DNA from: an uncultured Candidatus Saccharibacteria bacterium
GTDB taxonomy: Bacteria; Patescibacteriota; Minisyncoccia; UBA6257
NCBI GenBank assembly: GCA_964479005.1
Contig: CAYZJA010000002.1
Coordinates: 128,001 to 192,000 of the forward strand
DNA length: 64,000 nucleotides
Reading direction: 5' to 3'
A program made the position numbers and the translations under genes. Below the pieces are notes generated by a model. It was not told the DNA's origin. It did not search any database and saw nothing but the letters and a program-made list of their open reading frames with translations. Each line of letters starts with the position of its first letter. The stretch's first letter is position 1. Of this stretch, positions 44,130-62,900 are shown one piece after another.

Positions 44130-44175
<46 letters not shown>

Positions 44176-47110: not shown

Positions 47111-47838
47111 CGATTTGGCGGCCTAGAAGAGTAATCTTCTATGGAAAAAGTTGACTCATATAGATGAAACCCTATTACATAAATTGTATTTTAACCTGTC
47201 GTGTGGTAGGATAATATCTAGGGAAGTTTAACTTTTTTAAACGTGAAACATCTTTCAAAGACTCAATGTGCTTATATCGCTGGGTTTTTAGATGGTGACG
47301 GAAGTCTTTATATTAGGATTAAACCTAATAAGGATTATCGGTTTAACTATCAAATAGCCCCCAATATAGTATTTTATCAATCCCAAAAAGGATGGTTATT
47401 TCTTCAGAAAATTAAAAAAATGATTAGCGCTGGTTATATGAGAAAAAGAAATGACGGGATTGCAGAATATATTATTGGTGATGTAGCAACAATGTCTTCT
47501 TTGTTGAAGCAAATATCTTCATTTCTGATATTTAAAAAGAAACAAGCACAATTGTTTCTAAGAATTCTTCAAAAGAAAACAAAGGTAAAAACAAAAGAAG
47601 ATTTTATAGCTTTAGCTATAATGATTGATAAATTGGAAAAATTAAATTATTCCAAAAAAAGGCGCATTACTTCGCAAGTTGTTATCAACACGTTAAAAAA
47701 GTTGTAACCCCTTAGAGACTTGTTCTGGTTTTTACCAGAACGGAATAGAGATTTTTAATCTCTATTAATACGTCAACCTCCTAATAAAATATTAGGATGA
47801 TGGTATAGTCCATACATAAAGTAATTTATGATTATATG
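47111..47838 (+). mobile_element. Group I intron in 23S at the I-CreI-type site (E. coli ~L2593; ...ACCGU^CGUGAGACAG...)
   Basis: Exon sequence resumes with CGTGAGACAGGTCGG. The boundary has a 2-nt ambiguity (CG duplicated). Confidence 0.75.
47243..47707 (+). CDS. Intron-encoded single-motif LAGLIDADG homing endonuclease
   Basis: IAGFLDGDGSL motif. 154 aa, inside 23S intron 2. Confidence 0.8.
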   Translation: MKHLSKTQCAYIAGFLDGDGSLYIRIKPNKDYRFNYQIAPNIVFYQSQKGWLFLQKIKKMISAGYMRKRNDGIAEYIIGDVATMSSLLKQISSFLIFKKKQAQLFLRILQKKTKVKTKEDFIALAIMIDKLEKLNYSKKRRITSQVVINTLKKL

Positions 47839-47980
47839 CGTGAGACAGGTCGGCCTCTATCTGCTGTGGGCGTTCGATACTTGAGGAGAGCTGATCGCAG
47901 TACGAGAGGACCCGATTGGACGAACCTCTGGTCTACCGGTTGTCCTGCCAAGGGCATCGCCGGGTAGCTATGTTCGGAAG

Positions 47981-48013
<33 letters not shown>

Positions 48014-48175
48014 CACTCCAAGATTAGGTATCGTTTCCCATTTATGGGAGTGAGATTCCTGGAAGATGACCAGGTTGATAGGCTCTAGGTGGAAGTCCAG
48101 TAATGGATTAAGCCGAGGAGTACTAATTATCAAAGCAACTTTCCTATCTTTAGTGAAAAGAAATATTTTAAAATT

Positions 48176-48284
48176 CCGCTGGTGTTTTACTTAATTATGG
48201 TCCACCTCTTCCCATTCCGAACAGAGAAGTGAAAGTAATTAAGCCCGATGATACTCTTTTGGGGAAAGTAGGGTATGCCAGCGG
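48176..48284 (+). rRNA. rrf: 5S rRNA
   Basis: CCGCTGGTG...CCCATTCCGAACAGAGAAGTGAAAG...GCCAGCGG with helix I closing, followed by a T-run. Confidence 0.8.
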
Positions 48285-48522: not shown

Positions 48523-49875
48523 ATGGACAAACGATTAAGAAAACAAATTGTTATTGCTTTGGTATTTTTAGGCATTTTTTCGCTTATTGGCGGGGGAATT
48601 TATTTAACTCATCGTTCAGCTCCAACTTGTTTTGATAATAAGCGCAATCAAGGAGAAGAAGACGTAGATTGCGGAGGTCCTTGTATCTTGTGTGAATTAA
48701 AATACAATCCTCCACTTTCTTTAGCTGACTCTCCTGTTTTATTAGTTAATCAAGAAAATAAAGTTGACATCCTTTTTAAAATTACTAATTTAAGCCAGGA
48801 ATGGGGAGCTCAAGAATTTTTTTACAAAGTGATTCTTATAGGATCTAACCAAGAGAAACAAGAATTTATTAAATCTGGATTTATTTTTCCTCACGAGATT
48901 AGATATTTTATAGTTCCTAACATTGCGGTAGCATTTGAACCTTCAGAAGCTGATATAGAAATTTTGACAGAAACAATTGTATGGAATAAGCCATTATCAG
49001 GCATAGATCTTAATTTAGGAGATCCTTTTATTGTTACAAATACTAAAATAATAAAACCCCAGCCTATTCCCGGGGTTGATTATAATGTTTATACTTTTAC
49101 AAAAACTCTTGTATTGGGAATGAAAGATGCAGAAGTTTTTAACCTTCAGAAGGTTCTTCGCCTGGACCCCGCTATTTATCCTGAAGGTGAAGTAACTGGA
49201 TATTTTGGAAAATTAACAGAAGCTGCGGTAAAAAGATTTCAGAAAAAATATGGTATCAGGACTACTGGTCAAGTTGGTCCTCAGACAAGAGCAAAACTTC
49301 ATGAACTCTATGGACCTAGTGATATGGGGCCATTTAGCTATATTTTTACTTTAACTTTAAAAAAAGGGAATCGAGGTAATGAAGTGCTTAACTTACAAAG
49401 GGCGTTAATGTTGGATTCAACAGTTAGTCCTTTAGGCTCTATTACAGGTTATTTTGGGGAAATTACTGAAAAAGCAGTAAAAGATTTTCAGAGAAAATAT
49501 GGTATTAGAATTACTGGTCAAGTTGGTCCATTAACAAGGGATAAATTAAATGAACTTTTTAGTGAACCTCCTGAGACGATAACTGGTTTACCAGGAGAAC
49601 AATTAGAACCTTTTGAAGCCACTTTGGAAGTTAAAGGTGATGTTTATAATAGCACTTCATATAATTGGCGAAATGGAAATATAGCTATAATTCTTTGTGA
49701 TGATAAAAGAAAACCTGTTTCTGTAGGGACGACAGTTTTAGAAGATATTTATTCTGGCAAATCTTCTCAATTTGTTATTCAATGGCACCAGAAATTACCT
49801 GATGATATTACTATTTGTGAGAAAATTACAAATATTAATATTTTAGATGCGGAAAATGTTTTCTTAACTCCTTAG
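48523..49875 (+). CDS. Membrane-anchored protein with two peptidoglycan-binding (PG_binding_1-like) domains
   Basis: Two repeats of ...VxxLQxxL...GxxTGYFGxxTxxAVKxFQxKYGIRxTGQVGPxTRxKL. Confidence 0.6.
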   Translation: MDKRLRKQIVIALVFLGIFSLIGGGIYLTHRSAPTCFDNKRNQGEEDVDCGGPCILCELKYNPPLSLADSPVLLVNQENKVDILFKITNLSQEWGAQEFFYKVILIGSNQEKQEFIKSGFIFPHEIRYFIVPNIAVAFEPSEADIEILTETIVWNKPLSGIDLNLGDPFIVTNTKIIKPQPIPGVDYNVYTFTKTLVLGMKDAEVFNLQKVLRLDPAIYPEGEVTGYFGKLTEAAVKRFQKKYGIRTTGQVGPQTRAKLHELYGPSDMGPFSYIFTLTLKKGNRGNEVLNLQRALMLDSTVSPLGSITGYFGEITEKAVKDFQRKYGIRITGQVGPLTRDKLNELFSEPPETITGLPGEQLEPFEATLEVKGDVYNSTSYNWRNGNIAIILCDDKRKPVSVGTTVLEDIYSGKSSQFVIQWHQKLPDDITICEKITNINILDAENVFLTP

Positions 49876-49891: not shown

Positions 49892-50968
49892 ATGTTTAAG
49901 ACTGACTCTCTTTTGTTTTTCTCTCTCTTTATTTTGATTGCCCTAGGTTTATTAGTGTTATGGAGCATATCTTCTCAAGATGCTGCTCCTTTTTTTTCTT
50001 TTAAAAAACAACTGGTTCTTTTAGCAATAAGCATTTGCGCGTTTTTTGTTTTTTCCTTTTTGGATTGGCGAATTTTTAATTCTTCCCAATTAATTCTGAT
50101 TTTATATCTTTCATCCTTAGTTTTATTAGTTGTTGTATTGTTTTTTGGAGACAAGAGCAGTGGGGTGGCTGGTTGGTTTAATTTTGGATCATTTAGTTTT
50201 CAGCCAATAGAAATAGCAAAACTTTCTTTAATTATAATATTAGCTAAATATTTATCATCTCGGCATTTGGAAATTTGGCGGTTCCGTCATCTATTAACCT
50301 CTGGGTTTTTTACTTTTACTCCAATGGCTTTAATTGCCGCCCAGCCTGATTTAGGCGGCGCAATGATATTTGGAGCAATTTGGCTTGGTTTGGTATTTAT
50401 AAGTGGAATCAGATTTAAACAAATCATTCTTTTAATTATTATTTTTGGCTTAGTAGCGGGTTTGTCCTGGAGTTTTCTTTTAAAACCTTATCAGCAATCC
50501 CGAATTCTTAGCTTTATATATCCGCAAGAGGATCCTTTAGGGGTTGGATATCATAGAGAACAGGCATTGATTGCCATTGGCTCTGGCAGAATCTTTGGCA
50601 GAGATTTGGGTTGGGGCTCTCAAACAAATTTGCGTTTTTTACCATTAGCCAAGACTGATTTTATTTTTGCCTCTTTAGCTGAATCATTGGGTCTGTTTGG
50701 CGTTTCTGTGTTATTAGTCTGTTTTTTATTTATTTTTTATCGGTTGGTTATTTGGGCTAATACATTTTCTTATAATTTTTGCAAACTTTTTACTATTGGA
50801 TTTACCATTAAATTGTTAATTGGGGTTTTTGTTAATATTGGAATGAATTTGGGACTGCTTCCTATTGTGGGAATAGCCCTACCTTTTATTTCCGCAGGAG
50901 GTTCTCATCTTTTAATAGATTTTATTGGCCTGGGGATAATAAACAGTATGATAATCCACCGTGCCTAA
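49892..50968 (+). CDS. SEDS family peptidoglycan glycosyltransferase (FtsW/RodA)
   Basis: 10-TM protein with a PDLGGAMIF-type conserved loop and a C-terminal GGSHLL region. Confidence 0.8.
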   Translation: MFKTDSLLFFSLFILIALGLLVLWSISSQDAAPFFSFKKQLVLLAISICAFFVFSFLDWRIFNSSQLILILYLSSLVLLVVVLFFGDKSSGVAGWFNFGSFSFQPIEIAKLSLIIILAKYLSSRHLEIWRFRHLLTSGFFTFTPMALIAAQPDLGGAMIFGAIWLGLVFISGIRFKQIILLIIIFGLVAGLSWSFLLKPYQQSRILSFIYPQEDPLGVGYHREQALIAIGSGRIFGRDLGWGSQTNLRFLPLAKTDFIFASLAESLGLFGVSVLLVCFLFIFYRLVIWANTFSYNFCKLFTIGFTIKLLIGVFVNIGMNLGLLPIVGIALPFISAGGSHLLIDFIGLGIINSMIIHRA

Positions 50969-51007: not shown

Positions 51008-52018
51008 ATGAAACAAGTGCAATTTATCAAAATCTCATTATTCATCATTGTTTGCGTATTAGTGCTATTTTTTTATATATTAGTTAATTTTTCATTAACT
51101 TGTCAGGGAGAGTGTAATTTTTCAATAGAGAAAGGAGAAAACTTAAAAAGTATTGCCGATCGTTTAAGAAATCAAAAATTTGTTTCTTCATCTATGTTGT
51201 TTCAATTTTACGTAAAAATAAAAGGTCAGGAAAAAAACATCAAAGCAGGAGATTATTCATTTATTTCACCTTTAACGATTACTAACATAACCGAGATTAT
51301 TACTAATGGAAAATTAACTAATAATAGTTTCCTCATAGCAGAAGGGGAGACAATGTTAGAGATAGAGGAAAATCTAAGAGAAAAAGGTCTAATTGATGCA
51401 TTTTCATCATTAAAAGAATGGAAAACAGGGGATTTTCTTGAAAAAAAATATTTTGATATTTTTTCTGAAATTCCTACCGATGTTTCATTAGAAGGGTATT
51501 TATTTCCTGATTCTTATCATTTACCCCAGGGATTAGAAGAAGAAGAAATTCTTTCAATGTTTATAGATAATTTTGTCGCAAAAACTGAAAATGATTTATT
51601 TTTTGAGATAAAAGAGCAAAAAAGAAGTTTTTATGAAATTTTAACAATGGCTTCTTTGTTGGAAAAAGAAGTTCGCGAAGAAACAGACAAAAGAATGGTA
51701 GCAGATATTCTTTGGAGGAGATTGGATACGAATTTTCTTCTTCAAGTTGACGCAACAATTTGTTATGCTGAATTTCAATCATTTAAAAAATGTTCTCTTA
51801 CCCGTGAATTATTTAAATTAGATTCTCCTTATAACACTTATCTTTATAAAGGATTACCGCCTACACCTATTAATAATCCTGGAATAGAATCAATACAAGC
51901 AGCTTTAAATCCATTAGTAAATGATTATTGGTATTATATGACTGACAGAGAAACAGGAAAAACTATTTTTTCTGAAACATTTGATGAACACTTAGAATCC
52001 CGCGGGAAATATCTATAG
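51008..52018 (+). CDS. mltG: Endolytic murein transglycosylase MltG (YceG family)
   Basis: N-terminal TM; YceG-like domain with LQVDATICYA...SPYNTYLYKGLPPTPINNPG. Confidence 0.8.
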   Translation: MKQVQFIKISLFIIVCVLVLFFYILVNFSLTCQGECNFSIEKGENLKSIADRLRNQKFVSSSMLFQFYVKIKGQEKNIKAGDYSFISPLTITNITEIITNGKLTNNSFLIAEGETMLEIEENLREKGLIDAFSSLKEWKTGDFLEKKYFDIFSEIPTDVSLEGYLFPDSYHLPQGLEEEEILSMFIDNFVAKTENDLFFEIKEQKRSFYEILTMASLLEKEVREETDKRMVADILWRRLDTNFLLQVDATICYAEFQSFKKCSLTRELFKLDSPYNTYLYKGLPPTPINNPGIESIQAALNPLVNDYWYYMTDRETGKTIFSETFDEHLESRGKYL

Positions 52019-52108
52019 GAATTTTTATTTGATTTAAATAGTTTGCTATGATATATTTCAGTTGAGGGACAATATCGTCCCCTAACTGAAATAACTATTT
52101 AATTAAAA

Positions 52109-52306
52109 ATGGCTAAAAAAACAGAAAAGTTAAATATTACTAAGATCCAAGAAAAGATTACTCGGGCTAATTTGAAATTATTTACTTCTTTGGATTATCA
52201 AAGAATACTTAATTTAGATTATCAGGCGGCAAAGAGAAGCATTACTCGCTACATTCACGCAGGGTTTTTAGTAAAAGCCAGAAAAGCTTATCCCATTGAT
52301 TATTAA
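52109..52306 (+). pseudogene. Short ORF; possible N-terminal fragment of an AbiEi-like winged-HTH protein (very tentative)
   Basis: LFTSLDYQRILNL...ITRYIHAGFLVKARKAY resembles AbiEi_4 N-terminal domains. It is truncated at the rfbB' fragment. Confidence 0.25.
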
Positions 52307-52760
52307 AAATATCTTGGAAGGGAAAAGTTTGCCAGTGTATGGAGATGGAAAGAATGTTAGAGATTGGATTTATGTTGAAGATCATTGCAAGGCAATAGAT
52401 TTGGTTTTGGATAAAGGTAAATTAAGTGAAGTATATAATATAGGTGGATGTGATGAAAAACAAAATATAGAAATAGTTAAAATTCTTATAGACACAATCA
52501 AAGATTTGATAAAGAAAAATTCGGAATATCAGTTTATTTTAAAAACTGATTTATCTAATATTAATTATAATTTAATAGAATATGTAAAAGACAGAAAGGG
52601 TCATGATAAAAGATATGCTATAGATTCTACAAAAATAAAAAATGAACTCGGGTGGTTTCCCGAAACAAAATTTGGAGATGGTATAGTTAAAACAATTAAA
52701 TGGTATTTTGAAAATCAAGATTGGGTAGAAAACAAGCACGAGCTCTTCAAAAATATATAA
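52296..52760 (+). pseudogene. C-terminal fragment of dTDP-glucose 4,6-dehydratase (rfbB/rmlB paralogue remnant; N-terminal Rossmann half missing)
   Basis: LPVYGDGKNVRDWIYVEDHC...YNIGG...DKRYAIDSTKIKNELGW are RmlB C-terminal motifs. There is no NAD-binding GxxGxxG half. Confidence 0.7.
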
Positions 52761-52872
52761 ATAATAAAGATACAGTGGCTGACCTTAGTTGTGGTATTGG
52801 AAGAGCACTAACTTTTCTTAAAGTTAAAAAAATTGTCGATTATTATAAAAATTTTAAGGAGGCAAAGAATTT

Positions 52873-54021
52873 ATGAAAATAGGAATATTAACATTTAATT
52901 GGGCACTTAATTATGGAGCTGTATTACAAATGTATACATTATATAAGTATTTGAGTAAAAACAATGAGGTTTTTGTTATAAATTATGTTCCAGATTACTT
53001 AGCTAATCTATATAGTACAAAGATTTTTGATAAACCCTTGAGAATTAAATCAGTAATGGAAAAAATGCTGCAAAAACTAATAAAACATAAACAATATAAA
53101 AAATTCAAGGAATTTATTGATAAAGATATTACTTTAACAGAAAAGGCTAAAAATAGTGCTGAGTTATTAAAAATAATAAACAAACTTGATTTAGTTGCAG
53201 TAGGAAGTGACCAAGTTTGGAATTATGATATAACAAAAGACCATTTAAAGGATTATCTTTTAAGTAATATAAATTGTAACAAGATAAGTTATGCTGCTAG
53301 TCTTGGTAAAAATGAAATTAAAAGTGAAGTTGTAGGTTTATTTAAAAAATCTCTAAAAAATTTTGATTTTGTTTCTTTAAGGGAAGAAGCATCAATAAGT
53401 TATCTTAATAAAATTTGTAAAAGAAAAAATTACAAATTGTGTATTGATCCTGTTTTCTTGTTTAAAAAGGAGGAATGGGAAATCATTGCCGAAAAAAGTT
53501 ATTGTAAATTGCCGAATAAAGAATATATACTTGTATATATGTTAGAATATAATGCTAATTTAATCAAAGTGGCTAAATATTTATCTAAAATATATAATAT
53601 ATCTGTGGTTAGTATAGAAATTCCTTTTTTAACACTTGAAAGAATAACAAAAATGAAAAAAATTAAAAAACTACATGATGTAGGGCCAATAGACTTTGTT
53701 AAATTATTTTCAAATGCAAAATATATTTTAACAAATTCTTTTCATGGGACAGCTTTTTCATTAATTTTTAATAAGCAGTTTATTTCGTTTGCTCATTCAA
53801 CTGTAAATTTAAGGATGGAAAATCTTTTGAAGCTGTATGGTTTAGAAAATAATCAAATAGCTAATTCGTTTAAGGATATTGAAGTTGTTAAAAAAATTTT
53901 AGAAAAGAGTAAACAAGCATATAATAACCAAAATAAAGAAATAGATAATGTTATTGAAGTTTCAAAAAAATATTTAGATGATGTTGTAAAAGAAATTACA
54001 AATAAGAAGGGAAAATTATGA
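52873..54021 (+). CDS. Polysaccharide pyruvyl transferase family protein (CsaB/WcaK-like)
   Basis: N-terminal MKIGILTFNWALNYGAVLQ and overall PS_pyruv_trans-like organisation. Confidence 0.6.
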   Translation: MKIGILTFNWALNYGAVLQMYTLYKYLSKNNEVFVINYVPDYLANLYSTKIFDKPLRIKSVMEKMLQKLIKHKQYKKFKEFIDKDITLTEKAKNSAELLKIINKLDLVAVGSDQVWNYDITKDHLKDYLLSNINCNKISYAASLGKNEIKSEVVGLFKKSLKNFDFVSLREEASISYLNKICKRKNYKLCIDPVFLFKKEEWEIIAEKSYCKLPNKEYILVYMLEYNANLIKVAKYLSKIYNISVVSIEIPFLTLERITKMKKIKKLHDVGPIDFVKLFSNAKYILTNSFHGTAFSLIFNKQFISFAHSTVNLRMENLLKLYGLENNQIANSFKDIEVVKKILEKSKQAYNNQNKEIDNVIEVSKKYLDDVVKEITNKKGKL

Positions 54022-54105
54022 AAAATAATGTTTTTAAAAAAATTAAGCTAAGTTATTTTATATATTACAATTATTTTTGTCGTAATACTACATGGGGGAA
54101 GAATT

Positions 54106-54369
54106 ATGTTATACTGTTATAATAATACAATTTGCGATATAAGTTCTACTGCTAAAATTATATTAAATGGAAATTTAATTCTCAATTCCTATAAGCTAAA
54201 AAAATCAAAGGCTGAAATGTTACTTAGAATGAAAGAAAATACAAAATTAGTTGTAAATGGAAATTTTTCTTTTTACTACAATTGTGATATTAATATTTTT
54301 GACGGTGGAAGATTAACAATAGGTTCAGGATATGCTAATTGTGGTACACATTGCCTCTTACCCCATTGA
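54106..54369 (+). pseudogene. Truncated left-handed beta-helix (hexapeptide) acetyltransferase fragment
   Basis: ...VVNGNFSFYYNCDINIFDGGRLTIGSGYANCGTHC is hexapeptide-repeat like. The ORF stops after 87 aa where the beta-helix should continue. Confidence 0.45.
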
Positions 54370-54538
54370 GGAAAAAGGTCTTGCAGAAAACAAGCATTGG
54401 AATTTGATGAAGTAGAATACACTCTCAGCTAGCTGGTTAAACCAGACGGAGTAATTGAATATGTGAAAAATACGTTATAGTACTCTTTGTTAATTTGGTA
54501 AATGAAATAAAATATAATTATGTAATGGTGGTGATATT

Positions 54539-55603
54539 ATGAAAATAATACTTTTAGGTGGTACAGGTGCTATAGGAAGTCATTTGACAAACCTTTTATC
54601 TGATAGAAAAGATAAGGTTGTAGTAACTTCTCGAAGCCGTAATGAATCGAAAGAATTAGTTGAATATCGACAAGGAAATGCTAAAAACATAGATTTTTTG
54701 AGTGATGTTTTACGGGAACAATGGGATGCAATCGTTGATTTTATGGTCTATTCTGAAGATGAATTTCGTGAACGGGTAGATTTATTGCTGAGTTCTACAT
54801 CTCAATATGTTTTCTTAAGTTCAGCTAGAGTTTATAATGAAAGTCAAGAGGCTATAACAGAGGAATCTGCAAGACTATTAGATTCTTCTTCTGATTATGA
54901 TTTTTTAGCTACAAGCGAATATTCTCTTTCAAAAGCTCGACAAGAAAATATGTTACGTTCATCAAATAAGAAAAACTGGACTATTGTACGTCCGTATATT
55001 ACGTACAGCGAAAAGCGTTTGCAACTTGGAACTCTAGAAAAAGAAAATTGGCTTTATAGAGCATTACAAGGAAGATCCATAGTATTTTCTGAAGATATTA
55101 GGAACCACTTAACTACTCTAACCTATGGTTTAGATGTGGCAACTGGAATTGCAAGTCTTATCAATAATCCAAAATCTTTTGGGGAAACATATCATATTAC
55201 AAACGAATGTGCATGCAAATGGAGCGATATTTTAAACATATATTTAGATGTATTAGAGAATAAATTAGGAAATCGACCTAAAGTAATCTACCAAAATTTA
55301 CCTGATTTTCTAGTGTGGAATCCAGGAAAATACCCAATTATTTATGATCGGCTTTTTGATAGAAAATTTGATAATACAAAAATCAATAAATTAATAAACG
55401 CAAAAGAATTTGTACAAGTTCAGAATGGATTGAGAAAGAGTTTAAATACGTTTTTAATAAGCCCAGAATTTAGTAGTATAAGCTGGAAAAATGAAGCGAT
55501 AAAAGACAGATACGCTAAAGAAAGAACTCCATTAAAAGAAATCAGTGGCTTTAAGCAAAAAGTTAAATATTTGGCTTTTAGATATTTCATTAAAATTAAA
55601 TAG
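54539..55603 (+). CDS. NAD-dependent epimerase/dehydratase family (SDR) protein
   Basis: N-terminal GGTGAIGSHL Rossmann motif. Confidence 0.7.
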   Translation: MKIILLGGTGAIGSHLTNLLSDRKDKVVVTSRSRNESKELVEYRQGNAKNIDFLSDVLREQWDAIVDFMVYSEDEFRERVDLLLSSTSQYVFLSSARVYNESQEAITEESARLLDSSSDYDFLATSEYSLSKARQENMLRSSNKKNWTIVRPYITYSEKRLQLGTLEKENWLYRALQGRSIVFSEDIRNHLTTLTYGLDVATGIASLINNPKSFGETYHITNECACKWSDILNIYLDVLENKLGNRPKVIYQNLPDFLVWNPGKYPIIYDRLFDRKFDNTKINKLINAKEFVQVQNGLRKSLNTFLISPEFSSISWKNEAIKDRYAKERTPLKEISGFKQKVKYLAFRYFIKIK

Positions 55604-55633
55604 TACAAAATATAAATTTAGAGAGGTAATAAA

Positions 55634-57376
55634 ATGAAAACATATTATACAGACGAAAAAAATATACAGATTTTGATTGCATTACTTAAAGGACATGGAA
55701 TTAGAAAAGTAGTCGCATCTCCTGGAACAGCAAATATGACTTTTGTTAGAAGCCTGCAAAATGATTCTTTTTTTGAAATATACTCATCTATTGACGAGCA
55801 TTCAGCAGCTTATATGGCTTGCGGATTGGCAGCTGAATCAGGAGAACCTGTAGTTTTAAGTTGTACTGGTGCAACTGCATCAAGAAACTATATGCCGGGA
55901 TTGACAGAAGCTTACTATCGTAAATTACCAATACTTTCTGTTACAGCTACTCAAGAAATTGCAAAAGTTGGTCATCACATTCCTCAGGTTTTAGATCGTA
56001 GCTCTATGCCTAATGATGTTGTAAAACACAGTGTTCAACTGCCATTAGTTAAAGATGATACTGATTGGTGGAGTTGTGAGGTTAAGGTAAATAATGCCCT
56101 ATTAGAATTAAGTCGGCATGGAGGCGGACCTGTGCACATTAATTTAAGTATGGATTGTAGATTTTCGTTCAAAACTGTAGAATTACCAAAAGTTCGTGTA
56201 ATTAAGCGCATTAAAACACAATCAAGTGAGTATCCTTCTATGCCTGAAGGTAAAGTTGCGGTATTTGTTGGATCGCATGCAGAAATGACTAAAGATCAAA
56301 TAAGTGCACTTGAACATTTTTGTGAATCCAATAATGCAGTAGTGTTCTGTGACCACACAAGTGGATACAAAGGGAAATATTGTGTTGTTCATTCGCTTAG
56401 TTCTTCTCAAAGACTATCGGACTTTGATGGATTACGCCCTGATTTGTTAATTCATATTGGAGAAATTACCGGAGACTATTCTGTTAGTAGTATAGTTGGA
56501 AAACAGATTTGGAGAGTTAGCGAAGATGGCGAGTTACGAGATACTTATCGTAAACTTCAGTATGTTTTTGAAATGCCCGAACAAGTTTTTTTTAAACATT
56601 ATACTAAAAACGATATAAATAGTGGACTTTATTTACAAGTATGTCGTGATTATCTTGAACAATTGCTCAATAAAATACCAGAACTTCCATTCTCTAATCT
56701 TTGGATAGCAAAAAAAATACATAAGCTAATTCCAGAAAATTCTACTATTCATTTCGCAATTTTAAATAGTCTTCGTTCATGGAATTTTTTTGAATTACCA
56801 AAAACAGTTGAATCTAATTCCAATGTTGGAGGATTCGGAATCGATGGTTGTCTTTCTTCTTTAGTAGGAGCTTCGTTGGCAAAAAAAGATAGATTATATT
56901 TCGGTATCATCGGTGACTTAGCATTCTTTTATGATATAAATTCTATAGGTAATCGTCATGTAGGAAATAATTTACGAATTCTTCTAGTCAATAACGGAAA
57001 AGGCACAGAATTTAGAAATTTCAATCAGCCAGCGGCACAATTTGGAGAATCAGCAGATGAATTTATAGCAGCCGGAGGCCATTTTGGAAACAAGTCACAA
57101 ACCCTAGTAAAAAATTATAGCGAGAGTCTTGGTTTTGAATATTTATCTGCATCAAATAAAGCAGAGTTTGAGCAAGTCTATGAAAGATTTCTAACTGACC
57201 AGATGCTCGATAAACCTATATTATTAGAGGTATTTACAAATAGTGTAGATGAAAGTAAGGCTTTGGAAATGATAACATCAATTAGTACAACAGTTAAAAT
57301 GAAAACGAAAGATGTTATAAGAAATGTTGTAGGTAAGAATAATATTAGAAAAATCAAAAAATTTATTAAAGGTTAA
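55634..57376 (+). CDS. Thiamine-diphosphate-dependent enzyme (acetolactate synthase-like; possible sugar-branching YerE-type)
   Basis: Pyr-domain N-terminus, and a C-terminal TPP motif GDLAFFYD...NN(GKG). Confidence 0.6.
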   Translation: MKTYYTDEKNIQILIALLKGHGIRKVVASPGTANMTFVRSLQNDSFFEIYSSIDEHSAAYMACGLAAESGEPVVLSCTGATASRNYMPGLTEAYYRKLPILSVTATQEIAKVGHHIPQVLDRSSMPNDVVKHSVQLPLVKDDTDWWSCEVKVNNALLELSRHGGGPVHINLSMDCRFSFKTVELPKVRVIKRIKTQSSEYPSMPEGKVAVFVGSHAEMTKDQISALEHFCESNNAVVFCDHTSGYKGKYCVVHSLSSSQRLSDFDGLRPDLLIHIGEITGDYSVSSIVGKQIWRVSEDGELRDTYRKLQYVFEMPEQVFFKHYTKNDINSGLYLQVCRDYLEQLLNKIPELPFSNLWIAKKIHKLIPENSTIHFAILNSLRSWNFFELPKTVESNSNVGGFGIDGCLSSLVGASLAKKDRLYFGIIGDLAFFYDINSIGNRHVGNNLRILLVNNGKGTEFRNFNQPAAQFGESADEFIAAGGHFGNKSQTLVKNYSESLGFEYLSASNKAEFEQVYERFLTDQMLDKPILLEVFTNSVDESKALEMITSISTTVKMKTKDVIRNVVGKNNIRKIKKFIKG

Positions 57377-57390
57377 TATAAAATTAAAAT

Positions 57391-57708
57391 ATGAAAATAC
57401 TTACCAAAATTAAATCTATAGGAAAGCACTTGCCTAAACCAATTAAGCATATTATTAGACCTTTCTACATTAAAGTAAAAGGGAAAGAAAGAATAATAGT
57501 ATACAAAGAATTACTACAAGATACAGCTGAATTTCACAATAGAATTGATGATTCTAGAATTAATTATCAAGAGCTCGATAAAATTGATAGAATACTTAAA
57601 CAATTAAATCCTTTAGATGTGAGAAATTATATGTATTTAATAGTTTCTCTTTTTGGTTCGAAATGTTATTATAGATTAAGTAAGTTGAAACATAGTCTAA
57701 ATAATTAA
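57391..57708 (+). CDS. Hypothetical small basic protein
   Basis: ORF only. Confidence 0.3.
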   Translation: MKILTKIKSIGKHLPKPIKHIIRPFYIKVKGKERIIVYKELLQDTAEFHNRIDDSRINYQELDKIDRILKQLNPLDVRNYMYLIVSLFGSKCYYRLSKLKHSLNN

Positions 57709-57803
57709 TTCACTTTATCCCTATGTTTTAAATAAGGTGAGAGAAGCTTTTTGTAATTATTGTATTCTTATTGTTTCTCTTAAACTAATGTTGATAAAAA
57801 ACT

Positions 57804-58007
57804 ATGAATCCACAGCAATTGTACCATAAACAGTATGCCGAGCATGCCTTAATAATTAATCATGAATCTTTTTTCAAGAAAACCTTTCATAAGTTTAATG
57901 TCCATAGAAGAAATGTAGCAATTTCTTTACTAGAGAGAGGAAATAATTTACTTGATATTGGTTGTGGAGAAGGGTCACTTTTATTAAAGGCAAGAAATAA
58001 ATATTAA
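57804..58007 (+). pseudogene. N-terminal fragment of a class I SAM-dependent methyltransferase
   Basis: Motif I LLDIGCGEGSL is present. The ORF ends 15 aa later, at the junction with the duplicated mltG segment. Confidence 0.55.
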
Positions 58008-58809
58008 AGCGGGGGATTATCGATTTATTTCGCCGCTAACAATTGCCAAAATAACCGAGGCTATTACTAATGGAAAATTAAGCAATAATCATAGTTTTCT
58101 CATAACAGAAGGGGAAACAATGCTGGAGATAGAGGAAAATTTAAAAGAGAAAGGTTTAATTGACAAATCTGCCTCATTAAAAGAATGGAAAATAGGAGAT
58201 TTTCTTGAGAAAAAACATTTTGATATTTTTTCTCAAATTCCTTCAGATGCTTCATTAGAGGGCTTTTTATTTCCTGATTCTTATCATTTACCCCAAGGAT
58301 TGGAAGAAAAAGAAATTCTTTCAATACTTATTGATAATTTTGTCGCAAAAGCCCGTGGTGAGTTTAGTCAAACCACTAAAAATGATTTATTTTTTGATAT
58401 TAAGGAGCAAAAAAGAAGTTTTTATGAAATTTTAATAATAGCTTCTTTGTTGGAAAAAGAAGTTCGTGTAGAGACAGATAAAAGAATGGTGGCAGATATT
58501 CTTTGGAGGAGATTGGATACAAATTTTCCTCTTCAGGTAGATGCAACAATATGCTATGCAAAATATGAATCATTTAAAAATTGTTCTCTTACCCGTGAAT
58601 TATTTAAATTAGATTCTCCGTACAATACTTATATTTATAAAGGATTGCCTCCTACGCCTATTAATAATCCCGGAATAGAATCAATACAAGCGGCTTTAAA
58701 TCCATTGGCAAATGATCATTGGTATTATATGACTGACAGAAAAACAGGAAGAACAGTCTTTTCTGAAACATTTGACGAGCATTTAGAATTTCGCGGAAAA
58801 TATCTATAA
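58003..58809 (+). pseudogene. Truncated duplicate of mltG (C-terminal ~260 codons; lacks TM/N-terminus)
   Basis: Strong nucleotide and protein similarity to 51241..52018 (e.g. LEIEENL[K/R]EKGLID, LQVDATICYA, SPYNTY[I/L]YKGLPPTPINNPGIESIQAALNP). Confidence 0.7.
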
Positions 58810-58830
58810 AAACCAAAAACAGAGAATATT

Positions 58831-59916
58831 ATGAAAATTTTTATAATTTTAGGTACTCGTCCAGAGATTATTAAAATGTCTCCTGTTATAAGGGAATGTA
58901 TTAAAAAAAGGCTGAATTTTTCGATTTTGCATACAAATCAGCATTACTCGGAAAATTTGGATAAGGTATTTTTTAAAGAATTAAATTTACCTCGACCAAA
59001 ATATAATCTGAATGTTGGTTCTGGAACTCATGCTGAGCAAACAGCGAAAATTCTTGTTGGAGTGGAAAAGATTTTACTAAAAGAAAGGCCAGATATTGTT
59101 TTAGTTGAGGGCGATACTAATACAGTATTAGCAGGCGCTTTAGCAGCTGCTAAACTTCATATTAAAGTAGGGCATATTGAAGCGGGATTGAGGTCTTATT
59201 ATAGGGAAATGCCAGAAGAAATTAATAGAATTTTAGTTGATCATTGTTCTGATTTGCTTTTTACTCCAACAAAAGAAACGAAAGACATACTCTTAAATGA
59301 AGGGATTCCTCGTAATAAAATATTTGTTACAGGCAATACTATAATTGACGCTGTTTTTCAGAATCTTAAATTAGCTGAGAAAAAATCAAAAATATTGGAA
59401 AAACTTAATTTATCAAAAAGAGGATATTTTTTAATGACTGCCCATCGCGCAGAGAATGTTGATAATGAAAGTAGGCTAAGAGGTATTTTAAAAGGTGTTG
59501 AGATGACTTCTGAAAAATTTTCTTTGCCTGTAATTTATCCCATTCATCCGAGAACAAGAAAGATGATGAAAAAATTTAAACTTAAGGTTTCAAATAAGGT
59601 TAGATTACTCGAACCAATAGGCTATTTGGATTTTTTAAAACTTGAAAATAGTGCTAAACTAATACTTACTGATTCAGGGGGAATACAAGAAGAAGCTTGC
59701 GCAATGCGAGTTCCTTGCGTAACTTTGAGAGATAATACTGAAAGGCCAGAAACAATAGATGTAGGTAGTAATCTGTTGTCAGGTGCTAATCCTTTAAGAA
59801 TCTTAAAATCTGTTTCAAAAATGATGAATAAAAACAGAAAATGGAAAAATCCATTTGGTTCTGGCAAAACAGCGGAAAAAATAATCAAAATTATCCAGAA
59901 AAATGAAAAAGCATAA
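58831..59916 (+). CDS. wecB: UDP-N-acetylglucosamine 2-epimerase (non-hydrolysing)
   Basis: MKIFIILGTRPEIIKMSPV N-terminus and ...HIEAGLRS...DSGGIQEEA motifs. Confidence 0.85.
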   Translation: MKIFIILGTRPEIIKMSPVIRECIKKRLNFSILHTNQHYSENLDKVFFKELNLPRPKYNLNVGSGTHAEQTAKILVGVEKILLKERPDIVLVEGDTNTVLAGALAAAKLHIKVGHIEAGLRSYYREMPEEINRILVDHCSDLLFTPTKETKDILLNEGIPRNKIFVTGNTIIDAVFQNLKLAEKKSKILEKLNLSKRGYFLMTAHRAENVDNESRLRGILKGVEMTSEKFSLPVIYPIHPRTRKMMKKFKLKVSNKVRLLEPIGYLDFLKLENSAKLILTDSGGIQEEACAMRVPCVTLRDNTERPETIDVGSNLLSGANPLRILKSVSKMMNKNRKWKNPFGSGKTAEKIIKIIQKNEKA

Positions 59917-60067
59917 GGCAATATGTGTAATAGGCCTTGGTTATATTGGTTTGCCAACTGGCTGTTGTTTAGCTAAAGCTGGTTATGAAGTAATCGGCTT
60001 TTATTTAAATGAAGAGAAAATTAAGACTCTAAAATCGAAATTAAAAATTAACCAAGATGGATCTTAA
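59903..60067 (+). pseudogene. 54-codon N-terminal stub of UDP-N-acetyl-D-mannosamine/UDP-glucose dehydrogenase (wecC-like)
   Basis: MKKHKAICVIGLGYIGLPTGCCLAKAGYEVIGF is the NAD-binding N-terminus. It terminates inside the start of wzx and was not in the supplied ORF track. Confidence 0.6.
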
Positions 60068-61538
60068 AGATACAATCAAAAATATTGTTTTAAACCCAAG
60101 CGCTTTTTTTCTTAAAAACTCAGGAACTAAGCAGACTATTGCTAAAAACACTTTTTGGTTGGCAATAGCGGAAGGTATATCCAAGTTTTTAAAATTAATT
60201 TTAATTATTTATATTGCCCGAATTTTAGGGGCTACTGAATACGGAAAATTCACTTTTGCTTTAGCTTTTGTTTCTTTATTTGCCATTTTTTCTGATTTTG
60301 GTGTTTCTTCAATCACTACTCGCGAACTTGCCCGGGAAAAAGAGAAAGAAAAAGAATTTCCCAATATTCTTTCTTTAAAACTCGTTTTGGGTATAGGAGC
60401 TTTATTTTTAATTTGTCTTGGTTCTTTTTTTATTACCACTGACCCCTTGATTCGCGCGATAATCTGGATTTTAGGAATTTATATTATAGTAAGCAGTTTC
60501 TCGGGGATTATTTATGCTTTTCTAAGGGCTTGTCAGCAAATGGAATACGAGGCCTGGACTAAAATTCTACAAGCGATGGTTGTAACCGGGGCTGGTTTTT
60601 TTGTTCTTTTTAATTTTCCCTCGGTTCAAAGTTTAAGTTTAGCTTATTTGTTTGCCGTCTCAATTGCTTTGATTGCTATATTGACTTTTTTTCACTTCAA
60701 GATTTATCAACTGAAATTAAGTTTTAATAAAAATATATGGCGAAATGTTTTATTAATGTCTTGGCCTCTGGCTTTAGCAGGGATATTCGGAACGATTTAT
60801 AGCCAAACTGATTCGATAATGATGGGTTATTTTGGCCAAATTACCCAAGTTGGTTGGTATAATGCCGCTTATAAAATTATCGGAGCAACTTTGATTCCAG
60901 TAGGTCTTATCTCCATAAGTTTTTTTCCACTATTTAGTAAATTATTCAAAGAATCAAAAGAAAAACTTCAGAAATCTTGGGATTATTATATGCAGTTGAT
61001 GATTTTTTTATCCGTGCCTTTAATAGTAGGAGGTATAGTTTTAGCCCCAAAAATTATTGATTTTGTTTACAATTCAAGTTATTTTCCATCAATTTTAGCC
61101 TTTCAAATTTTACTAATAATGGCAGCACTTTCTTATATTTGCAATCCTTTTGGCCAGGCATTAATTGTTTCAAATCAGCAAAAAAGACTTTTTTGGATAA
61201 CTTTATCAGGAGCAATCGTCAATGTTGGGCTAAACTTAATTCTAATTCCAAAATACAGCCTTTATGGAGCAGCTTTCACCACAGTTGTTACTTTGTTTTT
61301 AATTCTCTTTTTGCTTTACAAATTCACGTCAAAATTTACTCCAATCAAACCATTTAATTTAAAATTTCTTTTTAGTTTTCTTGGCGCTACTTTTTCTAGT
61401 ATTCTAATGTATCTTGTAATTTCTCAACCGAATGTTTATAATTTAAATATCTTTCTTTCCATCCTTATAGGAAGTTTAATCTACTTTTTGTGTTTTTTTC
61501 TTCTTAGAAAAATCACAAATTTGCTTAAATTTTTATAA
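60057..61538 (+). CDS. wzx: Wzx-type oligosaccharide flippase (MOP superfamily polysaccharide biosynthesis protein)
   Basis: ~12-14 TM helices and an N-terminal ...AKNTFWLAIAEGISK region typical of Wzx/RfbX. Confidence 0.7.
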   Translation: MDLKDTIKNIVLNPSAFFLKNSGTKQTIAKNTFWLAIAEGISKFLKLILIIYIARILGATEYGKFTFALAFVSLFAIFSDFGVSSITTRELAREKEKEKEFPNILSLKLVLGIGALFLICLGSFFITTDPLIRAIIWILGIYIIVSSFSGIIYAFLRACQQMEYEAWTKILQAMVVTGAGFFVLFNFPSVQSLSLAYLFAVSIALIAILTFFHFKIYQLKLSFNKNIWRNVLLMSWPLALAGIFGTIYSQTDSIMMGYFGQITQVGWYNAAYKIIGATLIPVGLISISFFPLFSKLFKESKEKLQKSWDYYMQLMIFLSVPLIVGGIVLAPKIIDFVYNSSYFPSILAFQILLIMAALSYICNPFGQALIVSNQQKRLFWITLSGAIVNVGLNLILIPKYSLYGAAFTTVVTLFLILFLLYKFTSKFTPIKPFNLKFLFSFLGATFSSILMYLVISQPNVYNLNIFLSILIGSLIYFLCFFLLRKITNLLKFL

Positions 61539-61603
61539 CATATGAAAAATTTTATATTCAATCAATTTATGGGATACCATATAATTATTAATAAAAAAGT
61601 AAA

Positions 61604-62341
61604 ATGAAAGGCATAGTTTTAGCAGGTGGCACGGGTTCAAGGTTAAAACCTTTAACAAATGTTACAAACAAGCATCTTTTACCTGTTGGTAAGTACCCAA
61701 TGATTTTTTATCCGATTTATCAATTGAAACAATCAGGTATTACGGAAATTCTTATTGTAACTAGTAGAGGACATATGGGAGACGTTATTGAACTTCTTGG
61801 AAGTGGGTATGAATTTGGTGTTCAGTTTACTTTTAAAGTTCAAGATCAAGCAGGAGGAATTGCTCAGGCGCTAGGTTTAGCAGAGCATTTTGTTGACGGG
61901 GATCGTTGCGTTGTTATTCTTGGAGATAATATTTTTGAAAATGATATTACTCCTTTTGTTGAATCATTTGAAAAACAAGAAAAAGGAGCAAAAATACTTC
62001 TAAAAGAAGTTTCAGATCCCCAGAGATTTGGTGTAGCTGAGCTTAGAGATAGAAAAATTATTTTGATTGAAGAAAAACCAAAACGACCAAAAAGCAATTT
62101 TGCCGTTACTGGTATTTATATGTATGACTCTAAAGTATTTGATATTATTAAAACAATAAAACCTTCGGAAAGAGAGGAACTTGAAATAACGGATGTAAAT
62201 AATAATTATATTCAACAAGGCACGTTAACTTATGATATTTTAAAAGGTTGGTGGACTGATGCAGGGACTTCCGAATCTTTATTTCGAGCAAATGAATTTT
62301 GTAAAGATATAATCTTGAATTTTAAAAATGGAAAAGTTTAA
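61604..62341 (+). CDS. rmlA: Glucose-1-phosphate thymidylyltransferase (short form)
   Basis: GIVLAGGTGSRLKPLT nucleotidyltransferase motif. Sits upstream of rmlC-rmlD-rmlB. Confidence 0.8.
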   Translation: MKGIVLAGGTGSRLKPLTNVTNKHLLPVGKYPMIFYPIYQLKQSGITEILIVTSRGHMGDVIELLGSGYEFGVQFTFKVQDQAGGIAQALGLAEHFVDGDRCVVILGDNIFENDITPFVESFEKQEKGAKILLKEVSDPQRFGVAELRDRKIILIEEKPKRPKSNFAVTGIYMYDSKVFDIIKTIKPSEREELEITDVNNNYIQQGTLTYDILKGWWTDAGTSESLFRANEFCKDIILNFKNGKV

Positions 62342-62900
62342 AGTAATTAAAACTCCAATTAAAGATCTTGTAATAATAGAAACGAAAATATTCAAAGATG
62401 ATAGGGGATTTTTTATAGAAAGTTATAATTCAAAAGATTTTACTGATATTGGAGTTAATGGTCACTTTGTGCAAGATAATCATTCGATGTCAAAAAAAGG
62501 AGTTTTGAGAGGGTTACATTTTCAGTTTAAACATTCTCAAGGGAAGCTTGTTCGGGTAATTTCAGGAAAGGTATTTGATGTTGCAGTTGATTTAAGGTTA
62601 AACTCGTCAACTTTTGGGAAATGGTATGGAGTGGAACTTTCTGGTAATAATGGACTTCAATTTTATATACCTTCTGACTTTGCTCACGGTTTTCTTACCC
62701 TTCAAGAAAATACACATTTCTTTTATAAATGTACTGATTTTTACTGTCCTGATGATGAATTGGGAATTATATGGGATGATAAAGATATAGGTATCCAGTG
62801 GCCTTTATCTCAAGTTGAGAAGATTATAATTTCCAAGAAAGACAGTCAGTTACCCCCTTTTAGTGAAGTGAGGAGGATATTAGAAAAAGAAAATTCTTGA
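62328..62900 (+). CDS. rmlC: dTDP-4-dehydrorhamnose 3,5-epimerase
   Basis: RGLHFQ motif and cupin fold. Confidence 0.85.
   Translation: MEKFKVIKTPIKDLVIIETKIFKDDRGFFIESYNSKDFTDIGVNGHFVQDNHSMSKKGVLRGLHFQFKHSQGKLVRVISGKVFDVAVDLRLNSSTFGKWYGVELSGNNGLQFYIPSDFAHGFLTLQENTHFFYKCTDFYCPDDELGIIWDDKDIGIQWPLSQVEKIIISKKDSQLPPFSEVRRILEKENS

Follow-up and report, generated by a model that had tools for sequence, protein, structure and literature searches.

A mosaic surface-glycan locus with an orphan mltG fragment points to cassette exchange downstream of mltG in a Saccharibacteria genome

The cell-wall gene mltG is found twice in the 64,000 nucleotides of Saccharibacteria contig CAYZJA010000002.1 analysed here (the window), once intact and once as a 3' fragment, with intact and broken polysaccharide-biosynthesis genes in between. 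This raises the question of whether the arrangement is real and, if so, how a second, headless mltG came to lie behind such a set of genes. The features concerned are the following; L numbers denote the loci, related or otherwise matching, used for comparison.

48523..49875, + strand: PG_binding_1 protein (Pfam, E=5e-29)
49892..50968, + strand: RodA/FtsW (Pfam, E=5e-84)
51008..52018, + strand: mltG copy 1, intact, 336 aa (Pfam YceG, E=1e-71)
52019..52283, + strand: block B1, intergenic region, then the N-terminal ~58 codons of an AbiEi antitoxin (ORF 52109..52306), collinear with L012
52284..52760, + strand: block B2, rmlB', the C-terminal 154 codons of a dTDP-glucose 4,6-dehydratase (ORF 52296..52760; GDP_Man_Dehyd positions 201-331 of 332)
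52826..54046, + strand: block B3, intact polysaccharide pyruvyl transferase (52873..54021, 382 aa, 23% GC; PS_pyruv_trans positions 1-279 of 280, E=1e-36)
54012..57513, + strand: block B4, remnant ORF 54106..54369, SDR gene 54539..55603, TPP enzyme gene 55634..57376 and the first 41 codons of orf105 (57391..), collinear with L045/L046
57804..58004, + strand: block B6, MT', the N-terminal 67 codons of a class I SAM methyltransferase (by homology to L037)
58003..58809, + strand: mltG copy 2 (mltG'), orphan 3' fragment, codons ~78-336 (Pfam YceG profile positions 85-271, E=1e-53)
58831..60053, + strand: remainder of block C, intact UDP-GlcNAc 2-epimerase gene wecB (58831..59916; Epimerase_2, E=4e-117) and the ugd' stub
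59903..60067, + strand: ORF of ugd', the N-terminal ~46-codon stub of a UDP-glucose/GDP-mannose dehydrogenase (UDPG_MGDP_dh_N, PF03721, E=3e-12)
60054..63766, + strand: block D, flippase (60057..61538), rmlA, rmlC and rmlD (Pfam)

Contigs of relatives (L026-L040) often break within the 3' part of mltG, which is therefore an assembly-graph branch point in mixed populations, and a chimeric contig fusing two co-occurring strains through their shared mltG could be suspected. Against this, L002 (JGI 3300005782) is 100% identical to 51610..60439 (8,830 nt) and L050 (Logan SRR3085435) to 51799..58434 (6,636 nt); both span the two joints, which are thus identical in other samples and another pipeline. 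The pyruvyl transferase gene is present on seven contigs, including one of 551 kb and one from NCBI. Moreover, exact runs between the mltG copies do not exceed 38 nt, and the joint between MT' and mltG' lies at the edge of homology and is bordered by unrelated sequence; in a chimera formed through the repeat, the switch would fall within the repeat itself. Misassembly, against which the first-pass annotation had cautioned, is excluded by these independent assemblies across both joints, and a chimera is extremely improbable.

Upstream of the cassette the locus is constant. The genes for the PG_binding_1 protein (PGb) and RodA/FtsW are 79-96% identical at the amino acid level in every relative with sequence upstream of mltG, and the order PGb-rodA-mltG is kept in all relatives. 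Copy 1 of mltG, with 72-87% amino acid identity to the mltG of 20 or more relatives, closes this conserved flank and serves as the homology anchor when cassettes are exchanged. In contrast to the single architecture upstream, 14 unrelated architectures were counted in the 2-3 kb downstream of mltG among 31 loci. AbiE pairs occupy the same site in L003, L012 and L016, and in L034 a flippase stub of ~46-50 aa follows mltG immediately. In L018 a full mltG is followed by an AAA_14/DUF4143 ATPase, a metallophosphoesterase, an mltG fragment from codon ~192 and a flippase; this second orphan, with its different cut point, is 88.5% identical to its partner. L024 represents a near-empty site, with rodA (94%), mltG and wecB (97% nt) but without the cassette. 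The comparison yielded alternative cassettes, with each block collinear with a different related or unrelated locus. The region directly 3' of mltG is hypervariable and appears to be a recombination hotspot in this Saccharibacteria (TM7) lineage, in agreement with the earlier proposal of a strain-variable cell-surface polysaccharide locus.

The segment 52019..60053 itself is a patchwork of blocks from several sources, with ~6 kb of it between the mltG copies. From 51023 to 52284 the window is collinear with L012 (88%), in which AbiEi is full length (215 aa) and paired with a 242-aa AbiEii (PF08843 E=4e-25; NCBIfam AbiEi E=1e-9); the possible AbiEi-like fragment reported at 52109..52306 is the N-terminal ~60 aa of this antitoxin. 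The intergenic region of B1 contains a palindrome with 20-nt arms (52054..52093). The rmlB' fragment, correctly recognised before as the C-terminal half of a 4,6-dehydratase, is 88-91% nt identical to the complete rmlB that lies at the far end of L005, L007, L026 and L039. Its derivation from this genome's own rml operon was considered and rejected, as it shares just 51% amino acid identity with the rmlB that accompanies flip-rmlACD in L003 and L015. Block B3 is 88% nt identical to L049 (gene order rmlC-rmlB-rmlD-GT4-pyrT-FrhB-like-flippase), and the nearest named relatives of its pyruvyl transferase, full length as annotated, are from Thermosipho (64-68% aa).

Block B4 matches L045, a locus from another metagenome, at 97.1% nt identity (54501..57513), L046 at 92% (54347..57376) and the Firmicute Defluviitalea saccharophila CP121687 at 81.8% (54539..57376). 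Its SDR and TPP genes are intact and, with dN/dS values of 0.17-0.30, under purifying selection. Pfam places the former among SDR epimerases/dehydratases, in line with its annotation as an epimerase. The latter does encode a TPP enzyme, but one nearer to MenD than to the acetolactate synthase to which it had been likened. The 87-aa ORF 54106..54369 found no match in Pfam, NCBIfam or PDB even when reconstructed; it is a frameshifted gene remnant, and the label of hexapeptide acetyltransferase is therefore unsupported. MT' (57850..58004) is 80% nt identical to L037, where the methyltransferase is complete (217 aa, Methyltransf_11 E=3e-18). Its ORF (57804..58007) ends at the joint, which creates the stop codon, confirming a methyltransferase cut off at the repeat junction after 67 N-terminal codons.

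The mosaic does not stop at 58809, where its right boundary had been drawn, but runs on to ~60053 through mltG'-wecB-ugd'. From 57993 to 60040 the window follows L014 collinearly (84.5%), and L029 too, with copy 2 contiguous with wecB as in these two loci; wecB begins with a stretch 97% nt identical to L024. The ugd' stub sits just beyond the right edge of the region first described. Block D is 87-88% nt identical to L015, L017, L003 and L022, from 3 nt before the flippase ATG, and adjoins mltG directly in L015 and L017. The locus is therefore recombined, as had been suggested, while "decaying" applies to the stubs only and not to the full-length pyruvyl transferase, SDR and TPP genes.

The joints between blocks are abrupt, and two show short microhomology: CCAGAAA (52277..52283) between AbiEi' and rmlB', and AATAT (58000..58004) between MT' and mltG', the latter, at 5 nt, being weak evidence in DNA of ~30% GC. 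The joint between ugd' and the flippase was located at 60041..60053, and comparison with the parental sequences gave no microhomology there. Pfam and repeat searches detected no integrase, transposase or att-like repeats at the block borders, and no IS elements were seen in the window's locus. Differently collinear blocks, abrupt joints and two microhomologies support the proposed insertion or deletion by homologous or illegitimate recombination.

In a local alignment, 51218..52017 pairs with 57983..58808 (702 of 827 columns identical, 84.9%), the copies being in direct orientation and 6.8 kb apart; a separate repeat search divided the pair into three blocks of 80-90% identity each. Protein identity is 86% and the longest exact run common to both is 38 nt. 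Small indels occur near the 5' end of the alignment, and copy 2 contains 24 extra nucleotides in frame (58351..58374), a private insertion of 8 aa. Homology ends with the stop codon. At the other end, the A-rich match 57983-58000 is methyltransferase sequence according to the full-length gene in L037, and comparison of the joint with the parental sequences places the start of true mltG homology at ~57993-58003, about codon 78; the repeat coordinates first given (51241..52018 and 58003..58809, codons ~78-336) are therefore accurate. An identity of 85% upholds the description of 58003..58809 as a truncated mltG duplicate with alignable DNA, yet is below the level expected of a recent duplication. 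Copy 2 has neither a start codon nor an N-terminal hydrophobic segment, its first ~77 codons being absent, and is therefore probably non-functional; no internal stop or frameshift was found across its 267 codons.

A direct repeat of one gene at a spacing of 6.8 kb could have arisen by local duplication of the mltG 3' region within this genome, for example through unequal crossing-over or slipped replication; the extra copy would then have decayed neutrally for a long time, and other genes would later have come to lie between the two. Copy 2 also forms the longest terminal branch in the ingroup and carries the private 24-nt insertion, in keeping with such a history. A truncated, promoterless copy should, however, drift towards a dN/dS of 1, whereas the two copies give 0.137 (dS 0.485), a value as found for mltG orthologue pairs (0.105-0.171), and 267 codons have stayed free of stops and frameshifts despite this dS. 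Nor is there a surplus of private changes at invariant residues (four in copy 2, 0-4 in ingroup orthologues, 14 in the outgroup L025), and copy 2 is thus undecayed. The copies were sisters in 22 of 200 bootstrap trees (11%); copy 1 grouped with L003 and copy 2 with L006, both weakly. The tree is star-like and poorly resolved (support <50%), so that a foreign origin of copy 2 is unproven by phylogeny alone, and the alleles are mosaic, their best match differing segment by segment. A tandem duplication further predicts the downstream sequence of copy 1 after copy 2, where instead wecB-ugd' is found, collinear with mltG-wecB-ugd of other lineages. A local duplication is accordingly quite unlikely, and the copies are two diverged alleles under purifying selection, joined by recombination. 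The undecayed state of copy 2 could also mean that it is retained for a function, either as a silent gene-conversion donor diversifying the extracytoplasmic part of MltG or as an expressed 229-aa protein from the ATG at 58120 (ORF 58120..58809), and the mosaic alleles across the clade and the recurrence of orphan fragments would suit this. Recent truncation explains the intactness equally well, though, and conversion tracts between the copies are absent (60-nt windows 53-95% identical, no identical run above 38 nt). With a single orphan per genome, a promoter scan at chance level and a product that, lacking the N-terminal hydrophobic segment, could not reach the cell wall, retention for function is very unlikely.

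Islands at tRNA or tmRNA genes carry a replacement 3' end, and the layout seen here, a full gene followed by cargo and a displaced 3' fragment, is that of islands in gene 3' ends. It recurs in L018, and relatives hold typical island cargo at the site (AbiE toxin-antitoxin pairs, AAA ATPase), so that site-specific integration of a mobile element, with the mltG copies as attL and attR, deserves consideration. It is nevertheless improbable: neither the window's cassette nor the L018 insert encodes an integrase, recombinase or transposase; the orphan starts differ (codon ~78 against ~192); the repeats are ~800 and ~480 nt long at 85-88% identity instead of a short exact core; and the interior is itself mosaic, with several other illegitimate joints.

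The best explanation, which we hold to be probable, is cassette turnover anchored on mltG homology and completed by illegitimate end-joining, a displacement resembling homology-facilitated illegitimate recombination (HFIR). Surface-glycan cassettes, and in relatives AbiE pairs or other cargo, would be exchanged repeatedly between lineages, with the PGb-rodA-mltG flank as the homologous arm and the far end of the incoming DNA joined illegitimately, with short microhomology or none. The incoming DNA may have comprised a full mltG allele (copy 1) and an already mosaic cargo (AbiEi'|rmlB'-pyruvyl transferase-remnant-SDR-TPP-...-MT'). Its copy 1 would have paired with the resident flank, and its far end, within the methyltransferase gene, would have been fused through AATAT to the resident mltG at codon ~78, displacing the 3' 259 codons of the latter, together with the following wecB-ugd', downstream as an orphan. 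Single-crossover (Campbell-type) integration of a circularised fragment with the mltG 3' part could give the same product. Recipient DNA beyond the anchor is usually lost at the illegitimate joint of classical HFIR; a joint inside the anchor gene that leaves a duplicate is less typical, and Campbell-type integration fits at least as well. None of the relatives' loci compared has the exact pre-event arrangement of donor or recipient, and we therefore infer the direction of transfer (which copy was resident) and the number of steps; the succession of events and DNA uptake by natural transformation are likewise presumed.

The locus is what repeated gene swapping ordinarily leaves behind; events of this kind are known, and no new type of element is involved. 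HFIR with displacement was proposed for Vibrio cholerae T6SS effector-immunity arrays and the orphan 3' regions of Rhs/CDI (Kirchberger et al., 2017, PMC5361080, citing de Vries & Wackernagel, 2002, and Prudhomme et al., 2002, for HFIR). As in those arrays, a conserved upstream anchor is combined with an incoming module whose far end is attached illegitimately, the 3' part of the resident gene ends up further downstream as an orphan, no integrase is involved, and the same phylogenetic argument makes the orphans alleles of other strains and not local duplicates. [quoted passage not shown] There is one orphan per locus instead of an array, and it has no obvious benefit, whereas theirs include retained immunity genes.

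Similarly, one intergenic site bounded by core genes gathers varied cargo (AbiE in L003, L012 and L016, the AAA ATPase in L018, glycan cassettes), as at integration hotspots and defence islands. Most described hotspots hold integrase-bearing mobile elements, and none is visible at the mltG site. Variable capsule and O-antigen loci lie between conserved genes, such as dexB/aliA for cps of S. pneumoniae, galF/gnd for the O-antigen of E. coli, and the K loci of Klebsiella. The present locus resembles them as a hypervariable polysaccharide cluster at a fixed chromosomal site, exchanged via conserved flanks, with mosaic content, atypical GC and gene remnants at the junctions. It differs in its lack of visible IS elements, in belonging to an ultra-small, episymbiont-type Saccharibacteria genome with mltG as the left anchor, and in the toxin-antitoxin and other non-glycan cargo that relatives carry at the same site.

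Local alignment pairs 51218..52017 with 57983..58808, with 702 of 827 columns identical (84.9%), as expected from the alignable DNA reported between the two mltG segments in the first-pass annotation; there is a single in-frame 24-nt indel together with small indels towards the 5' end, and similarity stops at the stop codon. A separate repeat search recovered the identical pair. The copy at 51008..52018 (copy 1) has both hallmarks of an MltG/YceG endolytic transglycosylase, namely a full-length YceG domain (PF02618, E=1e-71, profile positions 1-272 of 275) and, preceding it, an N-terminal hydrophobic segment as membrane anchor (N-terminus KISLFIIVCVLVLFFYILV). The copy at 58003..58809 (copy 2, mltG') is 86% identical to copy 1 at the protein level and is an open frame from about codon 78 to the end, without stop or frameshift. 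A stop just upstream closes this frame, the anchor has been lost together with the rest of the first ~77 codons, and with only YceG profile positions 85-271 left it does not qualify as an MltG/YceG enzyme. This orphan is presumably non-functional.

The region was divided into blocks by comparison with 40 metagenome loci, two genome loci and the contexts of close homologues. The window matches contig Ga0111033_1189580 of JGI metagenome 3300008516. Its closest genome records, L003 (94% DNA identity over PGb-rodA; PGb, PG_binding_1 protein gene) and L004 (85.5%), are both uncultured Candidatus Saccharibacteria MAGs, and the organism is accordingly treated as a Saccharibacteria (TM7) lineage. Overall GC of the window is 33%.

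Blocks of the mosaic (window coordinates, forward strand; L numbers are related or homologous loci; a prime denotes a cut gene, MT' being the methyltransferase stub)
to 52018: block A, PGb-rodA-mltG1; conserved in all relatives with upstream sequence
52019-~52283: block B1, intergenic sequence and AbiEi'; collinear with L012 to 52284
to 52760: block B2, rmlB'; 88-91% DNA identity to the rmlB at the far end of L005, L007, L026 and L039
52826-54046: block B3, pyruvyl transferase; 88% DNA identity to L049, nearest named relatives Thermosipho
54012-57513: block B4, remnant-SDR-TPP-orf105'; 97.1% to L045, 92% to L046, 81.8% over 2.8 kb to the Firmicute Defluviitalea saccharophila
57849-58004: block B6, MT'; 80% identical to L037
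58003-60040: block C, mltG'-wecB-ugd'; collinear with L014 and L029 at 84.5%
60054 onward: block D, flippase-rmlA-rmlC-rmlD; 87-88% to L015 and L017, where it lies directly 3' of mltG

The rmlB' of block B2 shares only 51% protein identity with the rmlB of this genome's kind of rml operon. L024, a locus with the order rodA-mltG-wecB and no cassette, matches the start of wecB at 97% identity.

The joint MT'|mltG' was compared with its parents, i.e. the full-length methyltransferase of L037, the mltG of L014 and copy 1. Methyltransferase sequence extends up to 58004 and homology to mltG proper sets in at ~57993-58003 (about codon 78), in agreement with the first-pass placement of the mltG duplicate (58003..58809, codons ~78-336); the parents overlap in AATAT and are unrelated to either side of it. 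The methyltransferase had been described as an N-terminal stub cut at the repeat junction, and the profile match and the mapping of the joint to 58004 both uphold this. A joint at ~57985, with the last six methyltransferase codons being out-of-frame mltG, was ruled out by the full-length L037 gene. At AbiEi'|rmlB' the shared sequence is CCAGAAA; no microhomology was found at ugd'|flippase.

This arrangement is not an assembly artefact. Two other sequences match the window at 100%, each crossing both joints: L002, assembled from a different JGI sample, over 51610..60439, and L050, from the Logan assembly of SRR3085435, over 51799..58434. A third sequence, L051, is identical to 51976..56306. The pyruvyl transferase was found on seven contigs, the longest in the cluster measuring 551 kb, with NCBI among the sources. 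The longest exact run common to the two mltG copies is 38 nt, and the right joint adjoins unrelated sequence, which is not what a repeat-mediated chimera would give.

Sequence comparison suggests that the two copies are diverged alleles and not a local duplicate. Their dN/dS of 0.137 (dS 0.485) lies within the range for mltG orthologue pairs across genomes (0.105-0.171). Copy 2 shows four private changes at residues invariant among 17 other sequences, a count of 0-4 being found in ingroup orthologues and 14 in the outgroup. In a neighbour-joining tree of 19 mltG sequences the copies were sisters in 22 of 200 bootstraps and non-sisters in 89%, with copy 1 placed beside L003 and copy 2 beside L006, both weakly supported (node support <50%). 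Taken together, these data suggest that nearly all of the divergence arose while both copies worked in different lineages, and the truncation of copy 2 would be recent relative to it. The closest mltG match shifts from segment to segment along the gene, so that the alleles themselves appear mosaic; no gene-conversion tract was found between copy 1 and copy 2. Sliding identity of the flanks against L003, L005 and L024 was mosaic too and singled out neither donor nor recipient.

All ORFs named in the first-pass annotation are present in the window, and Pfam and NCBIfam profiles bear out most of their labels: YceG in both mltG copies, the C-terminal half of a dehydratase at 52296..52760, a full-length pyruvyl transferase and the SDR epimerase. 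The profiles show the TPP enzyme to be MenD-like and not acetolactate-synthase-like. The possible AbiEi-like fragment orf65 (52109..52306) corresponds to the first ~60 residues of a 215-aa AbiEi antitoxin; with ~58-60 N-terminal codons kept and AbiEii absent, it does not represent an AbiE type IV toxin-antitoxin system, which is found as full AbiEi with its AbiEii partner in L012 and L016 and as a similar pair in L003. The hexapeptide acetyltransferase label of orf87 (54106..54369) found no support, as no Hexapep or LbH match was obtained in Pfam, NCBIfam or PDB. These three sources also gave no match of any kind to orf87, including its frameshift-corrected reconstruction; set against the corresponding ORF of L045, it is a frameshifted remnant. 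For orf105 (starting at 57391) no family or structure match was found.

The SDR and TPP genes (dN/dS 0.17-0.30) and wecB (0.11) are under purifying selection. The suspected decay is therefore confined to the stubs, which are dead, and does not extend to the core of the cassette. Beyond the range covered by the first-pass annotation, a further junction scar is formed by a 54-aa N-terminal stub of a UDP-glucose/GDP-mannose dehydrogenase (ugd', 59903..60067), which overlaps the end of wecB and reaches the start of the flippase; the homologous sequence of L014 runs past the joint. Between rmlB' and the pyruvyl transferase lies a 51-aa ORF (52721..52876) with the sequence DLSCGIGR, which resembles methyltransferase motif I; it had no Pfam match and may be another gene fragment. 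The AbiEi stub is preceded, at a distance of 15 nt, by an imperfect palindrome with 20-nt arms (TATTTCAGTTGAGGGACAAT / ATCGTCCCCTAACTGAAATA; 52054..52093), which might serve as operator for AbiEi or as terminator for mltG. A gathering scan of the whole window with Rfam returned rRNA and tRNA only, and nothing within 51-60 kb. Over 50.9-60.2 kb, promoter-like sites (48 versus 50 expected) were uninformative on expression of the orphan or wecB, and two terminator-like sites were seen versus 3.2 expected.

The SDR and the MenD-like TPP gene (54539..57376) recur together in L045, L046 and L047 as a mobile two-gene module. At the DNA level the pair matches L045 at 97% and, over 2.8 kb, Defluviitalea saccharophila at 82%, and its dS to the Firmicute (0.66-0.74) only slightly exceeds that among the mltG alleles of the clade. 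Across Firmicutes, Bacteroidota, Campylobacterota and Cloacimonadota, identity of the TPP protein does not fall below 64%. On these sequence relationships, acquisition of the module across phyla appears clear. A pyruvyl transferase is near the pair in L045 and Defluviitalea and is not within the L046 contig. As to the function of the TPP enzyme, PDB and NCBIfam gave only the resemblance to MenD and a literature search gave nothing relevant.

The upstream side of the locus is conserved, with rodA preceding mltG in every relative with upstream sequence (83-96% amino acid identity); conservation of the PGb-rodA-mltG flank in all relatives (80-96%) likewise refers to those with upstream sequence, some loci having less than 1 kb of it. 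The 2-3 kb downstream of mltG fall into 14 unrelated clusters among 31 loci, which supports a strain-variable surface-polysaccharide locus as initially proposed. Various glycan cassettes occupy the site in relatives. AbiEi/AbiEii pairs lie directly 3' of mltG in L012 (1122..2460), L016 (2129..4912, two pairs in tandem) and L003 (4945..6204), so that the hotspot holds defence or stabilisation modules besides glycan genes. L034 has a flippase stub of ~46-50 aa immediately 3' of mltG. In L018 an AAA_14/DUF4143 ATPase and a metallophosphoesterase are followed by a second orphan mltG fragment, which begins at codon ~192 and matches the full copy of that locus at 88.5% identity. A private 24-nt insertion in copy 2 (58351..58374; 8 aa, ARGEFSQT) is also at mltG codon ~192, the very position at which the L018 orphan starts (L018 ~3232). 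This may be coincidence, or may mark a fragile or linker site within mltG.

Fourteen contigs of relatives start within the 3' part of mltG (L026, L027, L029, L030, L032-L040, L043 and L044 in part), that of L027 at codon 73, near the orphan boundary of the window. Such starts are expected where co-occurring strains diverge and probably reflect branching of the assembly graph; similar orphan copies in those populations are possible. The conserved flank also accounts for the breaks that assemblies of these organisms show here.

The mosaic blocks and the abrupt joints, two of them with microhomology, support the proposed origin by homologous or illegitimate recombination. In homology-facilitated illegitimate recombination (HFIR) one end of the insert lies in an anchor homologous to the recipient, as PGb-rodA-mltG does here, and the other at non-homologous DNA with 0-10 nt of microhomology, as seen with AATAT at MT'|mltG'. 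The model further calls for an orphan and a partner of different lineages, to which the dN/dS and the weakly supported tree may point, and for linear DNA brought in by natural transformation or some other route. Cassettes would be exchanged via the conserved flank, with the far end joined illegitimately. An HFIR 'displacement' model has been described for V. cholerae T6SS arrays and orphan Rhs/CDI 3' regions (PMC5361080), and the pattern in the window fits the same model. Other bacteria are already known to exchange DNA through a conserved flank, with illegitimate joining and orphan fragments left behind; the present locus adds an example of a polysaccharide and accessory-gene region that is hypervariable, lies between conserved genes and carries recombination scars.

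The same product would also result from a Campbell-type single crossover with a circularised fragment carrying the mltG 3' part. An integrase-mediated genomic island at the 3' end of the gene is unlikely. The ORFs of 52019..60053 and of the L018 insert contain no tyrosine or serine recombinase domain, no transposase was found, and a search for att-like or cassette-boundary repeats gave only the mltG repeat and the one palindrome upstream of AbiEi'. The orphan boundaries also differ (codon ~78 in the window, codon ~192 in L018), which does not fit a fixed attachment core. Which copy is the resident one, by what route the DNA was taken up and in what order the six or more joints arose are inferences. 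A bolder reading, to which we attach very little credence, regards the mltG 3' part as a dedicated, recurrent landing pad of Saccharibacteria, where integrase-free 'stacking' adds cassettes and leaves lasting intact orphan mltG fragments. The orphans might then be kept intact by serving a following exchange as homology arms, or by acting as silent donors that diversify the exposed part of MltG; if true, this would be a recombination-based surface-variation system of an episymbiont.

Saccharibacteria live attached to host bacteria, so that host range, phage susceptibility and immune recognition are likely to be affected by their surface glycans. Even in the very small genomes of this group, a glycan and defence hotspot with fast turnover is maintained at one fixed position, directly 3' of mltG. 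It is fed by the DNA of close relatives and of other phyla, as indicated by SDR-TPP (82% to a Firmicute) and by the pyruvyl transferase, nearest to Thermotogota among named organisms. The points of note are the ultra-small Saccharibacteria genome, the mltG anchor with its recurrent orphans and the inter-phylum SDR-TPP acquisition. In metagenomes, variants of the glycan locus can be typed with the PGb-rodA-mltG flank as a marker.

Elsewhere in the window, the 23S rRNA match within 43573..48284 covers 3,569 nt, the model being 2,925 nt long. Homing-endonuclease introns or insertions in 23S genes are common in CPR bacteria. One LAGLIDADG ORF (45819..46310, E=2e-24) lies inside the match and a second (47243..47707, E=2e-10) in a stretch of ~726 nt (47113..47838) missing from L004; both probably belong to such introns or insertions, located within the 23S gene or close to it.
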